DNA of 64,000 nt from Escherichia coli 042 (GCF_000027125.1 NC_017626.1), one strand, 5' to 3'; counted from the first letter of the stretch, positions 1 to 5,994 are shown. Numbers and translations: made by a program. The notes: generated from the letters alone by a model not told the origin.

Positions 1-2855
1 CGACCGAGGGTATATTGCCCACCGGAATTAACCTTTGTGGCGAAGTCCTGACCCAGGTTTTGCATTGCCCCACCGTTGCCAACCGTGGAATCGCGAGCTT
101 CGGTACCTGCTAATACCAATAAATTACCGCCATTTTCCAGCAGCACATTGGTCGCTAAATTTCCGGCAATGGAAAAGGTGCCGTACTGGTGAGTACCGCT
201 GATTTCAATACCGTTAGCCGTGCTCGTCTGGAGAGCGGCACCGCTGTTCTGGATGATATCTGTCGCTTTGCCATTATCGTTGACTGTCAGCGTACCGCCT
301 TCATTAATCGTTGTTTTTACTGCCTCACCGTTAGCCGAAACTGTTTGTATTCCGCCGTCGTTAATCGTTGTCTCATTCGCCACCCCCTCGACGATTTGTT
401 CGCCGCCGGTGAGCGTCGTGCCTGTCGCAGTGGCTTTTGTTTTGACGATCTCCCGCCCGCCCGCATTGACCTGTGTTTTGGCGGAAGTGGTGTCTGACTC
501 CACGGTTAACACGCCGCCATTTGCCAGCAGGATATTGTTCGCCGCATCCTGCTCAATGCTGAACGCGACGCCATCAGCGCGTGTCCCTGTGACCCGCGTC
601 GCTCTGGTGGTTGCAACCAACGCGCCCTGGCTACTTTGCTGTATCCCCGTTGCGCTGCCTTTCTCCCGCACATCGAGAGTGCCGCCTTCATTAAGCACCG
701 AGTTTTCAGCCAGACCGCCCTCATTAACTACCTGTGAACCGCCATTAATAATGGAACCTTCCGCTGTCCCGTTTACCATAATTTGTTGTAGGCCAGAGAC
801 GATATCGGTATTGATCGCCTTACCATAATTCTGAACGGTTTGCGTACCGCCATTGATGTGCGTTTTGTCTGTTGACCCACCATCAACAATTTGTTCACCA
901 CTTTCAATATTTGCATCAGTGGCTAAACCATATACCGTTTGCTTGCCACCTTTGATATTTGCTTTTTCAGAAGTGGCACTGGCATATATTGTTTGGGTAC
1001 CAGCACTATTAAGTACAGTACCAACATCTTTTCCATAAACATCCATTTTGCCGTTGGCATTAATAATCGTGTCAACTGCCCGGGAACCAGTGACGACTGT
1101 TAATGAGCCAGCGTTTTCCAGCACTACATTTTTAGCTTCTGAATTCCTGATGTAGAAAACATCACCATAACTGTTGGTTCCTTCGATAAGTGTTCCGGAA
1201 GTCGTGGAAGCAATTAATGCGCCGCCGGATTGTTGCTCAACATGCTTAGCCTCACCACCGTCCTGAACCTCCAGAACGCCACCATTATTAAGTCTGATGG
1301 TATCTGTTTTAGCCTCCTTCTGGACAATCAGCTTACCGCCAGCATCAACGGTAGTATTTTTCGCCGAGGTTTTAGCCATTACCGTCAGTTCGCCGGTATT
1401 TTCCAGCACAACATAATTAGCCTCTCCTCCGGTAATAGTGAAGTGAGAGAGCTTGTTGTATCCTTCGATATCAGTCCCTGCGCCCGTGTTGGCAACTAAA
1501 GCACTGCCCGTCTCCTGGTTAACCCCATGTGCAATACCGCCGGTATAGACAATCAGCGAGCCTCCGGCGCTAATATTGCTGCCAGTTGCCGTACCATCTT
1601 TCTCAACAACCTGCCGGCTCCCAGAGGATATATTTGTCGTGTCAGCTTTCCCGCCGCTCTTGATATTTTGTGTTCCGCTGTTGATATTGGTGCCCGTGGC
1701 AATACCATAATTATTAATATTCTGTGTGCCACCATTAATTATGGTATTTGTCGCTTTTCCGGCAACATCCATAACGCCGCCATTATCTATTCGGGTCGCA
1801 TCAGCTTTAGCATTCGTTAAAACTGACATTGTTCCTTTATCTTTAATAATCGTCTTATTTGCCGAACCATATGCGTTTATGTCTAAATGACCACCGTTTT
1901 CCAGCAACACATTCTCTGCCACGGTATTGTGGATGGAGAATGCCCCTTCACTATTCGTACCGCTCACCGTCGTACCGTTAGTGTTTGTTTTTAAAATTGC
2001 ACCATCGTGCTGGGTAACATTTGTTGCCGTACCACCACTAACATCAAGCACGCCACCGGAATAAACTTCAATAACATCCGAGGTGCTGGTGTAATCAACA
2101 ATTTGCGTACCACCAGAATAGATCTGAGTATTTTTTGCCGTTGACTTACTATTCAGAGACTGAGTTCCGCCTTCAATCGTCGTGTCCAGCGCACGGCTCT
2201 CATATACTCTTTGCTCACCGCCATTTTTAATGGTGGTTGTTTCTACTGTGCTCTGTTCAACATACTGTCGACCACCATTTATGGTTGTGTTCGTCGCCAG
2301 ACTTCCTTGCGTGATGTCCTGATAACCGGACTTATTTATCGTTGTACCATCAACATGCCCCTGAGTTGATACTGACTGGCCTCCACCATCAATGATTGTT
2401 CCATTTGCAGTCCCCCCCTCTATGCGTGAAGTACCGCCCTTAATTGTCGTGTCATTGCTGGTACCACCTTTATAAACATATTGATTACCACTTTCGATTA
2501 TCGTGCCAGTAGAAATTCCTCCGTACTCAATTGACTGTCTGCCTCCATTAATGGTTGTATTATTAGCTTGCCCGTTAATATCGGCATGGATTGATACTAG
2601 TTGCTCGCCACCAGTTTCAATAATACTACTATTAGATATCCCACCATAGACCTCCTGCCGGCCATGGTTGATAATATGTGTGTTATTTGTTGTACCTCGT
2701 TCATCTACTCGTTGGTTGCCATCTACAGTCTCATCGTTTACCACACCAATAACATTAGTAGTGAAGGCCGCCATCCCGGGCTGGGCATATATTAAGGCAG
2801 ATATCAATAAGGAAAGTACTGAGCGGCGAAAATAATAGGGACTGGTCCTGTTCAT
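1..2855 (-). CDS. ypjA: Autotransporter-type adhesin, partial: N-terminal signal peptide and passenger region only; the 3' end of the gene lies left of the window
   Basis: Minus-strand frame is open from the window edge to an ATG at 2855 with GAGG 9 nt upstream. The N-terminus MNRTSPYYFRRSVLSLLISALIYAQPGMAAF is signal-peptide-like. The nucleotide sequence is internally repetitive, as in beta-helix passenger domains. Position next to the recombinase remnant and tRNA-Ile matches the K-12 ypjA neighbourhood (recollection). Confidence 0.7.
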   Translation of the reverse strand, partial: MNRTSPYYFRRSVLSLLISALIYAQPGMAAFTTNVIGVVNDETVDGNQRVDERGTTNNTHIINHGRQEVYGGISNSSIIETGGEQLVSIHADINGQANNTTINGGRQSIEYGGISTGTIIESGNQYVYKGGTSNDTTIKGGTSRIEGGTANGTIIDGGGQSVSTQGHVDGTTINKSGYQDITQGSLATNTTINGGRQYVEQSTVETTTIKNGGEQRVYESRALDTTIEGGTQSLNSKSTAKNTQIYSGGTQIVDYTSTSDVIEVYSGGVLDVSGGTATNVTQHDGAILKTNTNGTTVSGTNSEGAFSIHNTVAENVLLENGGHLDINAYGSANKTIIKDKGTMSVLTNAKADATRIDNGGVMDVAGKATNTIINGGTQNINNYGIATGTNINSGTQNIKSGGKADTTNISSGSRQVVEKDGTATGSNISAGGSLIVYTGGIAHGVNQETGSALVANTGAGTDIEGYNKLSHFTITGGEANYVVLENTGELTVMAKTSAKNTTVDAGGKLIVQKEAKTDTIRLNNGGVLEVQDGGEAKHVEQQSGGALIASTTSGTLIEGTNSYGDVFYIRNSEAKNVVLENAGSLTVVTGSRAVDTIINANGKMDVYGKDVGTVLNSAGTQTIYASATSEKANIKGGKQTVYGLATDANIESGEQIVDGGSTDKTHINGGTQTVQNYGKAINTDIVSGLQQIMVNGTAEGSIINGGSQVVNEGGLAENSVLNEGGTLDVREKGSATGIQQSSQGALVATTRATRVTGTRADGVAFSIEQDAANNILLANGGVLTVESDTTSAKTQVNAGGREIVKTKATATGTTLTGGEQIVEGVANETTINDGGIQTVSANGEAVKTTINEGGTLTVNDNGKATDIIQNSGAALQTSTANGIEISGTHQYGTFSIAGNLATNVLLENGGNLLVLAGTEARDSTVGNGGAMQNLGQDFATKVNSGGQYTLG

Positions 2856-3242
2856 AAATTTCATCCTCTGAAAAGTGAATACTGAGTAGCGTTTAAGCGA
2901 CCTTAGCTTTGCTGCAACATCAGCCCACAGGCACCAGACCAGGGGATTCATCCTGAAGAGACAGCGCAAGTGTATTGTGTTCACCGCTCATCAAAGACAT
3001 CATGATGAAATGATGATATTCCGCATAAGAATGAGGCATTTTTTTAAGACATTGTGCTGAAGGATGATTGGATAAAAAAGTCAATCTTTTCAGGAAATAC
3101 GGCGTATTCTTTTCTTTCGACATTGAAGCCGTCGGAAAAATAAAATGATTTACATAATCGTTTCTGATGAATATCTTCTGCTCACATAAAAATCACACAA
3201 TAACATTGAGATTGCAGATTGTTTTACTTTTACAGCTTTCGT

Positions 3243-3510
3243 CCCCTCATTGTTGGGCAAATATTGGTAGAGTCAGAGCACGAAAGTTAATACCACGTTC
3301 GCACAGCTCCTCCAACAGCACGGCAAGATGCCGCATACTGCGCCCCAGTAGGTTCAGTTTGCAGACAACCAGTGTGTCACCTACCGATAATGTCCTGAGC
3401 CGTTTGTTCAGTCCGGCCCTGCTGCCACGGTTTTACGTTGAAGTGGTAACCCTGAGCACGCAGTTCATCAGTCAGGCATGGTGCACCATAACGCTGTTGT
3501 TGCTGGGTAA
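3243..3510 (-). pseudogene. pinH: Decayed serine recombinase (Pin/Hin-type DNA invertase) remnant
   Basis: Minus-strand translation of ~3260-3378 gives DTLVVCKLNLLGRSMRHLAVLLEELCERGINFRALT, matching the conserved resolvase/invertase core (GDTLVVWKLDRLGRS...RGI.F.SLT). Flanking frames are broken by stops and shifts; no start codon or catalytic-serine region is intact. Confidence 0.65.
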
Positions 3511-3618
3511 GATCAAAAAACTTTCAGGCAGCTAAGGAAAGTTGAATCAGACATTAGATGAAATATTTCAACCAATTACAGCACCAATTTAAACTCAGTA
3601 AATCACAGCGCAGATCAA

Positions 3619-5243: not shown

Positions 5244-5781
5244 TGTCTTTTCCTCAGTTAATGTCTACATGGCTATTTTTAATGTTATTATTGTTTGTCA
5301 CTATAAAAAATCGCTCATTTGAGACAATTGCTGGCATTAACAGCTTCATATGCTATACATGGTACTTTTAATTAATTTAGCACAAGAATGTTAAATTTAA
5401 TAAGCAAAAGGTTATTTCACTGTATGATAAAAACCACCCGTTATAATTTATTCGTGAGAATCGTTTTTTGAGTGTTAGAAATTTATATCTAAATAGCGTT
5501 GATTAATGACCAAAGCCAGACTCCTGTAATGCTCACAAGACTCTTCTGCATTCGACGGCGGTTCTAGTCAGTAGTAGATGTTTAAGGCGTGGCAGAGACA
5601 TTTCATCCTTACTCTAAGGCATTGTTCTACATACATTGGTCGTGGTACTCACTCAGCATAAGTGAGCGAAAAGAGAATAGTTCAGTGATTTGAGTAATTA
5701 ACCTGATTAAATGAAGGGGTATAATAAATGATAATACTCTGTCTTTATCGTTAATTACTTAATTCCACATGTAAGCAATTT

Positions 5782-5808
5782 GCCCGCTTGGCATAGCGGG
5801 CATTTTTT
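5782..5808 (+). terminator. Intrinsic terminator-like hairpin on the plus strand (gcccgc-ttggcata-gcgggc then ATTTTTT)
   Basis: 6-bp GC stem followed by a T6 run. Lies between the split hypothetical gene and tRNA-Ile, both on the minus strand. Confidence 0.4.
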
Positions 5809-5994
5809 CCAGGTACTTTTGAATGAGTACTGATGGATAAATACATTGCAGTGGCGTGCCACGTACCAAAACACCAGCCCTCATTCGAAACCACCCACCA
5901 CACTTCTTCCTTGAAATGGCGTTAGTCGTGAAATATAGACCGCCATCGAGTACCCCTTGTACCCTTAACTCTTCCTGATACGTGAATGATGATT

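Follow-up and report, generated by a model that had tools for sequence, protein, structure and literature searches.

In Escherichia coli K-12 MG1655, ypjA (b2647), pinH (b2648, a pseudogene), ypjB and ypjC (b2649 and b2650), the tRNA gene ileY (b2652), and ygaQ (b4462, a pseudogene) lie between ssrA, which is followed by the island CP4-57, and glaH (csiD). We studied the same locus in E. coli 042 (GCF_000027125.1, NC_017626.1), in a stretch of 64,000 nucleotides that we will call the window; unless another locus is named, positions are counted from its first base. A first-pass annotation, made from the sequence alone, had read the AT-rich block on the 3' side of ileY (positions 1 to 5994) as an integrative element that entered at the 3' end of this tRNA-Ile gene and then lost its mobility. 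We found that ileY is itself part of the variable DNA. The block probably makes up the left two-thirds of a horizontally acquired islet of about 10.75 kb that is fixed and not mobile; in a majority of E. coli genomes, this islet fills the interval from the ssrA terminator to the glaH promoter. The K-12 locus has been annotated before, and earlier work records its pseudogenes, the use of ileY as an attachment site (attB), and the loss of ileY by way of insertion sequences (IS). Our contribution is to map the boundaries and to reject the tRNA-integration reading.

The closest described system is the K-12 locus, which has the same genes in the same order and on the same strands, and the same scar of an invertase joined to an IS3 element. 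Overall, the DNA of the window is about 93.6% identical to K-12-type alleles, and it is 82-99% identical to K-12 itself when compared 250 bp at a time. The two loci differ in how their genes have decayed: ypjCB has one nonsense codon in 042, but in K-12, a 105-bp deletion leaves separate ypjB and ypjC genes; and ygaQ is intact in 042 but is a pseudogene in K-12. Also, position 67 of ileY is a G in 042 and an A in K-12.

Several kinds of mobile elements resemble the locus in part. Phage 186 uses both ileY and ileX as attB (PMC3448106), ter-operon islands insert between ypjC and ygaQ, at ileY (PMC8193136), and the OkiPb01685 genome has a satellite-like element in ileY. The block is like these elements in that it lies by the same tRNA and on its 3' side. 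However, these elements encode a tyrosine integrase, replace the 3' half of the tRNA, and leave the displaced 3' fragment as a direct repeat. The block has none of these features and lies outside the elements. Between ssrA and glaH, in an interval that is hypervariable, islands of the CP4-57 type lie next to the islet. CP4-57 begins at the attachment (att) core of ssrA and ends with a short ssrA repeat (psaA), whereas the islet begins 151 bp farther on and has no such repeat. Finally, phages and islands carry tRNAs for rare codons, such as the tRNA-Ile(CAU) of Stx and T4-like phages, and ileY is similar in being a tRNA within AT-rich, AUA-rich foreign DNA. In fact, 1870 phage records match the tRNA of the window. 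Unlike the phage-carried tRNAs, ileY has no phage or mobility genes around it.

Results

The islet runs from just past ssrA to just before glaH

We compared the locus across 5426 complete genomes of E. coli and in other species of Escherichia. At least 80% of bases 1-9200 were found in one place in 2595 of the E. coli genomes, and at least 80% of bases 3700-9200 in 2869 of them. We identified an empty allele, in which glaH follows about 680 bp after ssrA, in 1100 genomes (at least 80% query coverage). In the rest, the region is partial. In E. coli isolate 127, which has the empty allele, nothing lies between the end of ssrA at 13516 and the start of glaH at 14199. We inspected two empty-allele genomes, isolate 127 and NRG 857C, and in both of them, ypjA, pinH, ypjCB, ileY, and ygaQ are all missing from between ssrA and glaH. 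The empty site consists of ssrA, a flank of 151 bp, a spacer of about 355 bp, and then glaH. E. whittamii and Escherichia sp. E1V33 have this empty allele too, and the spacer in both is orthologous.

On the left, the 151 bp past ssrA, including its terminator, are common to all alleles, and the homology between empty and occupied sites that extends from ssrA stops within 10 bp of the ypjA stop codon. (In K-12, these 151 bp sit to the right of attR of CP4-57.) The first-pass annotation had expected a distal boundary to the left of position 1 and had expected a repeat of the tRNA to mark it. By comparison with strain GF60, the boundary does lie to the left, by about 1.73 kb and just past the ssrA terminator, but there is no tRNA repeat. 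On the right, homology with the empty-site genomes and with Escherichia albertii resumes at 9020-9080, which is upstream of glaH and about 140-200 bp past the ygaQ stop codon. Given these two edges, at ssrA plus 151 bp and at about 9020-9080, the unit is about 10.75 kb and runs from ypjA through ygaQ, with ileY inside it. According to RefSeq, the gene order in the best matches and in K-12 is ssrA, CP4-57 (in K-12 only), ypjA, pinH, ypjB/C, ileY, ygaQ, and glaH. So, the block is variable at this site across E. coli, as expected, but the edges of the variable DNA are not at the tRNA: no boundary between presence and absence falls at its 3' end, and the genomes with the empty site lack ileY and ygaQ as well as the block.

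Some genomes have lost part of the region. The breakpoints of these partial deletions include 5511-5514, 6458, 6627, 7290, and 7774-7794, among others. The ones that we inspected abut copies of IS3 beside islands that are integrated in ssrA. This agrees with a previous report that E. coli W and E. coli B lost ileY through separate IS-mediated deletions (PMC3032704).

ileY is an attachment site, but other elements use it

ileY encodes tRNA-Ile2 with the anticodon CAU and lies at 5995-6070 on the minus strand (ARAGORN, and Rfam with 71.6 bits). As the first-pass annotation described, its 3' end at 5995 faces left, toward a block whose features are all on the minus strand. We searched for repeats of the 3' half of ileY using exact 12- to 20-mers and using tiled 20-mers with up to 3 mismatches. 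There are none elsewhere in the window, where no second copy of the tRNA's 3' end had been noticed before, and none in the GF60 locus (from ssrA to ileY) or the K-12 locus (from CP4-57 to ileY). As a positive control, the same kind of search recovers a displaced 46-nt tRNA fragment in OkiPb01685. A listing of open reading frames (ORFs) and the RefSeq annotation of homologous loci (GF60) showed no integrase between ssrA and ileY. The recombinase that had been taken for a mobility gene is a 59-codon piece of an invertase of the Hin/Pin type, not a tyrosine integrase or a large serine integrase. The islet has neither an integrase nor terminal repeats.

In other genomes, the match to the window begins at 5992-5995, right at the end of the tRNA, and these genomes have a newer element inserted there. 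In OkiPb01685, a satellite-like element of 11.6 kb lies in ileY (at about 2400-14079 in the coordinates of that locus) and encodes a tyrosine integrase, a primase, a major capsid protein, a head decoration protein, and a small terminase subunit. The element gives the tRNA a new 3' half, with compensating changes in the T arm, and the original 46-nt 3' fragment is left on the ypjCB block; its longest exact match to the intact tRNA is 19 nt. Enterotoxigenic E. coli L6_E562 has the same hybrid tRNA, beside the end of a CP4-like island. ileY is thus a true attachment site, and elements enter between it and the block. In OkiPb01685, such an insertion displaced the block, which thus behaves as chromosomal flank and not as an element itself.

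The AT-rich tract extends to both sides of ileY

The block at 1-5994 is 41.9% GC, as compared to 52.3% for 9201-64000. Among other stretches of 5994 bp, the lowest GC content is 47.4%, and the mean is 52.1% (standard deviation, 2.0%). This confirms that the block is more AT-rich than the DNA to the right of about 9.2 kb. However, AT-richness is not limited to the 3' side of the tRNA: the tract runs through ileY and ygaQ to about 9020-9080. Its AT-rich core is at 3001-9000 (36.7% GC), on both sides of ileY, and the GC content returns to the level of the core genome only at about 9250. At the other end, the first 750 bases (1-750) are core-like, with 53-58% GC.

Codon usage gives a similar picture. 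The GC content at third codon positions (GC3) is 0.29-0.44 in the genes of the islet and 0.63-0.67 in glaH, lhgO, and gabD. The AUA codon is 3- to 7-fold more common in the islet, with 28 per 1000 codons in ygaQ, 14.7 in ypjA, and 12.4 in ypjCB, versus 3.8 in the core. By GC content, GC3, and AUA usage, then, the composition is clearly atypical, and it goes together with variable presence among strains. This part of the first-pass annotation holds up well: the DNA is foreign by composition, is strain variable, and contains the decayed debris of mobile elements.

E. albertii shares only the right part of the islet

E. albertii is an early-branching species of Escherichia. It has ileY and a homolog of ygaQ (60% identity at the protein level) at the same site and with the same right edge, but it shares only about 5678-9075 with the window. 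With BLAST, the identity is 73% over 5678-6149, which contains the tRNA, and 67.5% over ygaQ, while the flank by glaH is about 92% identical at the DNA level. To the left of ileY, E. albertii NBRC 107761 has genes for type III effectors instead of ypjCB and ypjA (3-4259 in the coordinates of that locus). One of these effectors is EspG-family (E = 3e-99 to PDB 3q1c), and another is EschOTU (E = 5e-120 to PDB 6w9s). This locus also includes a gene for a ribosomal protein similar to L31 type B, at 5581-5847.

E. coli and E. albertii have about 317 bp directly 3' of ileY in common. The block's junction is therefore not at the tRNA, or at its att core, as the tRNA-integration reading had it. Within E. 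coli, the identity to K-12 also changes near this position, from 82-93% over 2250-5750 to 94-99% over 5750-9250. The extent of sharing with E. albertii and the step in the identity to K-12 together place a module junction at about 5680-5750, which is 250-320 bp from the tRNA and not at the att core.

We also scanned loci from other enteric bacteria. No tRNA gene was found within 10 kb upstream of glaH in the loci from Salmonella (diarizonae and arizonae) or in those from Hafnia, Shimwellia, Pluralibacter, Leclercia, Yokenella, Pseudocitrobacter, or Serratia. The same is true of 18 of the 19 Citrobacter loci; the other one has only an unrelated call for a tRNA-Cys. Two loci from Trabulsiella do have a tRNA-Arg, but it is downstream of glaH. 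None of the outgroup loci scanned contain a homolog of ygaQ or ypjCB, and one Pseudocitrobacter locus has a weak match to YpjA, with 25% identity.

Origin of the islet

How did the islet arise? In the explanation that we favor, it would have entered the interval between ssrA and glaH once, or else as two modules. The left module would comprise ypjA through ypjCB and would end at about 5680-5750. The right module, which is common to E. albertii, would comprise ileY with its trailer and ygaQ. Later spread or loss of the islet would be due to homologous recombination in its conserved flanks and to deletions mediated by IS elements, rather than to site-specific excision. ileY would be an accessory and dispensable second copy of an AUA-reading tRNA, among genes that are rich in AUA codons and in AT. 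These genes are probably silenced by H-NS and its partner Hha, which would fit with the finding that Hha binds close to ileY in vivo (PMC2408971). The fragments of an invertase and of IS3 would be inert debris and not a mobility system.

We considered three other explanations. If an element had inserted site-specifically in the 3' end of ileY and had later lost both its integrase and its distal att repeat, then we might see much of what is seen here: phage 186, the ter islands, and the OkiPb01685 satellite show that ileY is a real attB; the cargo to its left differs between E. coli and E. albertii, with its EspG-family and EschOTU genes; and the block is AT-rich and carries recombinase and IS debris. 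But this scenario does not account for the absence of the tRNA from empty-site genomes, or for the 317 bp next to ileY that E. albertii shares. Furthermore, there is no repeat of the tRNA's 3' end between ssrA and ileY, the sole recombinase is a fragment of a small invertase, the AT-rich tract goes on along the 5' side of the tRNA, and modern elements in ileY treat the block as flank. We therefore view insertion into ileY as quite unlikely. An eroded old island in ssrA, similar to CP4-57, with the gene for tmRNA as its original target, seems less plausible still. The 3' end of ssrA does face the islet, about 160 bp from the ypjA stop codon, and ssrA is an active hotspot, with CP4-57 in K-12 and integrase-bearing islands in PSJ-29, NCTC11476, and others. 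However, because the 151 bp past ssrA are in islet-bearing and empty alleles alike, the islet does not start at the att core of ssrA, and attR of CP4-57 lies to the left of those 151 bp. Searches with exact 10- to 14-mers, and with 20-mers allowing up to 4 mismatches, also revealed no repeat of ssrA's 3' end within the islet or around 9020. A simple origin by integration into ssrA is not supported.

The other alternative is that the region is ancestral Escherichia DNA that is AT-rich by chance and was deleted from the genomes with an empty site. The presence of ileY and ygaQ at the same position in E. albertii, with the same right edge, would be expected if so, and progressive deletions of the region are seen in many E. 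coli genomes. On the other hand, the spacer of about 355 bp in the empty allele has no counterpart in islet-bearing genomes and is orthologous in three lineages. In GC content, GC3, and AUA usage, the region is very different from the core. Outside of Escherichia, there are essentially no homologs of ygaQ and ypjCB, and the loci from Salmonella, Citrobacter, and other enteric bacteria have no ileY, ygaQ, or ypjCB upstream of glaH. Also, YgaQ from E. albertii is just 60% identical (as protein), as compared to about 92% (as DNA) for the flank by glaH. We consider ancestral DNA to be unlikely.

Some observations do weigh against the explanation that we favor. The main caveat is that E. albertii, despite branching early, has ileY and ygaQ at the same site, so that the empty allele could be a secondary loss. 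ileY is almost identical to the chromosomal gene ileX, and because of this, it is as likely to have arisen by local duplication or gene conversion as by import. Since ileY is a proven attachment site, and E. coli and E. albertii have different DNA on its 3' side, an element may have integrated there long ago, with its integrase and repeats since eroded away entirely. Finally, the left edge lies beyond the window and was placed using GF60 and K-12. Both the polarity of the change (gain versus loss) and its history (one step versus two modules) are things that we infer.

ileY and the conserved block downstream of it

The ileY of the window differs by 1 nt from ileX of K-12 and by 1 nt from ileY of K-12, which identifies it as the AUA-reading tRNA-Ile2. 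Judging from its sequence, it should read AUA after lysidine modification. At positions 6 and 67, the window has T6.G67, ileY of K-12 has T6-A67, and ileX has C6-G67. In GF60 and 118UI, whose flanks are the closest to those of the window, ileY differs from the window's at 5 positions, including a compensated pair in the anticodon stem (G28-C42 to A28-T42). The window's ileY looks like a GF60-type locus in which positions 28-67 were converted to the sequence of ileX. In K-12, ileY can be deleted and ileX cannot (PMC11480407).

A non-coding block at 5726-5900 on the minus strand, which is 95-270 nt downstream of ileY, is a candidate for a structured 3' trailer or terminator of the ileY transcript. 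This block is about 175 nt, single copy, and unannotated. Among the E. coli genomes that have it, all 3092 show an identity of at least 95%, and it is missing from 2334 of the 5426 genomes (about 43%). Compared to E. albertii, identity is 80-100% across 5753-5892 and 65-75% at the left edge (5713-5752), and the surrounding bins of 20 alignment columns are mostly 0-60% identical.

The minus strand of this block is predicted to fold at -52 kcal/mol (z = -4.3), versus -39.7 kcal/mol for the plus strand, and would form a hairpin of 85 nt (5896-5812) and a GC hairpin (5802-5781). In an alignment of just four sequences, ten pairs vary on one side and stay paired (GU to AU, GU to GC, or UA to UG), and only two cells are broken; the hairpin has no double-sided changes among these four. 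Scanning 1-10000 against Rfam (E ≤ 1) gave the tRNA and, besides that, only weak chance matches.

These features are suggestive, and the block may be the terminator or trailer of ileY or an RNA that is derived from the trailer. There is said to be a precedent in E. coli: Lalaouna et al. reportedly showed in 2015 that 3'ETS-leuZ, from the 3' external transcribed spacer of a tRNA, is a functional RNA. Like 3'ETS-leuZ, the block is conserved, structured sequence on the strand of the tRNA and just downstream of the tRNA gene. It differs in that it is known from its sequence and its predicted fold, and it may simply be the terminator region of ileY. That it is a functional structured RNA, whether derived from the tRNA's 3' trailer, as for 3'ETS-leuZ, or a dedicated element for processing or termination, is a tentative idea that we doubt more than we believe. 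If it were true, it would explain why the block is conserved in E. coli and E. albertii while the neighboring genes decay.

We rejected several other explanations for this block. A phage origin does not fit, as phages match the tRNA alone, and the block is not a dispersed repeat, as it is single copy. An ORF of 50 amino acids at 5751-5903 on the minus strand is broken in GF60 and in E. albertii. There is a promoter-like site at 5698-5725, ahead of a terminator-like hairpin on the plus strand, but conservation of its -10 element does not extend to E. albertii, and such sites were no more numerous than in shuffled sequences. Just upstream of that hairpin (5781-5808), we noticed a tiny ORF on the plus strand at 5728-5754 (ATG ATA ATA CTC TGT CTT TAT CGT TAA, or MIILCLYR), with two consecutive AUA codons; the corresponding peptide in E. 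albertii is MIMLRLYR. The ORF is probably due to chance: it overlaps the predicted -10 element, which is not conserved.

Other genes of the islet and its flank

Positions 1-2855, on the minus strand, are the 5' part of ypjA (also known as ehaD), or roughly codons 1-951, which encodes an autotransporter similar to AIDA-type adhesins. The start at 2855 is from the annotation of GF60, and there is an in-frame ATG farther upstream, at 2864. The frame is free of stop codons for all 966 codons, from about 2855/2864 to base 1, and includes a signal-like N terminus and the passenger; the part that encodes the beta-barrel is beyond the window. The DNA is 93.5-98.7% identical to annotated ypjA genes, with 47.3% GC, and in the closest complete genome, ypjA is intact (4575 bp). 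What had been described as a truncated autotransporter is cut by the edge of the window and not by mutation. The region upstream of ypjA (2885-3234, minus strand) contains a small ORF that is similar to ymgJ (2920-3123, 67 amino acids). This region is a paralog of the ymgJ region beside another autotransporter gene elsewhere in E. coli (86-87% identity), which suggests that an adhesin cassette was duplicated along with its own upstream region.

The serine-recombinase remnant that had been noticed to the left of the tRNA is real. It is pinH, an internal fragment (59 codons) of a small serine DNA invertase of the Hin/Gin/Pin type, at 3250-3429 on the minus strand. It aligns to residues 40-93 of the DNA invertase in PDB entries 3uj3 and 4m6f (E = 2.4e-13), its DNA is 84% identical to pinE, and RefSeq labels it as a partial recombinase. 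The fragment spans only residues 40-98, so it has neither the N-terminal region with the catalytic serine nor the C-terminal DNA-binding domain (helix-turn-helix); stop codons and an IS3 fragment delimit it. No hix- or gix-like cores or inverted repeats, as would accompany a complete invertase, were found near pinH beyond what is expected by chance. For the same reason, we rejected the idea that ypjA once had an invertible promoter.

Fused directly to the invertase fragment is a 91-bp internal fragment of orfB from an IS3-family transposase (3420-3510, minus strand), with 87-89% DNA identity to transposase genes of IS3 and a weak match to the NCBIfam model for IS3. A complete element would have orfA, orfB, and terminal inverted repeats; this one has 91 bp of orfB only. 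The composite scar of invertase and IS3 is common to 3035 of the E. coli genomes. Between the IS3 fragment and ypjCB, we noticed a strong terminator-like hairpin on the plus strand at 3617-3644, and the 57 bp around it (3614-3670) match an E. coli plasmid at 96.5%.

The split hypothetical frame is also real: it is ypjCB, a pseudogene at 3789-5243 on the minus strand. Just one in-frame stop codon interrupts it (TAA at 4896-4898; TTA in GF60), with no insertion or deletion. The region is 99.6% identical to GF60, whose ypjCB is intact. The protein matches DUF5507 and DUF5508 in Pfam (1.4e-74 and 2.4e-136) as well as Ecoli_YpjCB in NCBIfam. Among the best 120 of 426 homologs, all of those with a source name are from E. 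coli or Shigella, and ypjCB appears to be an orphan gene, with essentially no homologs outside of Escherichia. We found no sequence relative of YpjCB in PDB, and the AlphaFold model has a pLDDT of 41.8. We considered whether YpjCB might be a decayed type III effector or a pentapeptide-repeat protein, but given that it has no relative in PDB and that Pfam gives only the two DUFs, we rejected these ideas. We regard two matches to giant proteins as spurious, as one weak motif was multiplied by identical repeats.

To the right of ileY, an intergenic region of 30.8% GC (6071-6629) separates it from the divergently transcribed ygaQ (6630-8882, plus strand, 37.9% GC). ygaQ is an intact gene for a protein of 750 amino acids from a divergent branch of the alpha-amylase family, with weak matches to the Pfam models Alpha-amylase and Alpha-amylase_C. 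Besides K-12, many other strains have it as a pseudogene. Homologs of YgaQ were found only in E. coli and E. albertii, aside from metagenomic matches at 34% and 24% identity. The 34% relative, from a human gut metagenome, sits among genes for InvH, FidL-like, MarT-like, and invasin-like proteins.

Beyond ygaQ come glaH, lhgO, and gabD. Compared to K-12 in stretches of 250 bp, glaH and lhgO show only about 91-99% identity, and the flank is 90-95% identical to that of the empty-site allele, so the neighborhood of the islet holds deeply diverged haplotypes. GlaH proteins from Pseudocitrobacter species such as P. vendiensis are 96-99% identical to GlaH of the window, as compared to 86-90% for Citrobacter and Salmonella. 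This suggests either that the genera are closely related at this locus or that the glaH region was transferred horizontally.

Implications

Finding a tRNA gene beside decayed, AT-rich genes does not suffice to diagnose a tRNA-integrated island. At this locus, the variable DNA includes the tRNA itself and has its true edges at the ssrA terminator and in the promoter region of glaH. If the conserved block downstream of ileY does act as a functional RNA, then ileY and its trailer would be the selected core of the islet. In any case, ileY is accessory, as indicated by the absence of this marker block from so many complete genomes of E. coli, and an accessory ileY is relevant to the use of the rare AUA codon in horizontally acquired genes.

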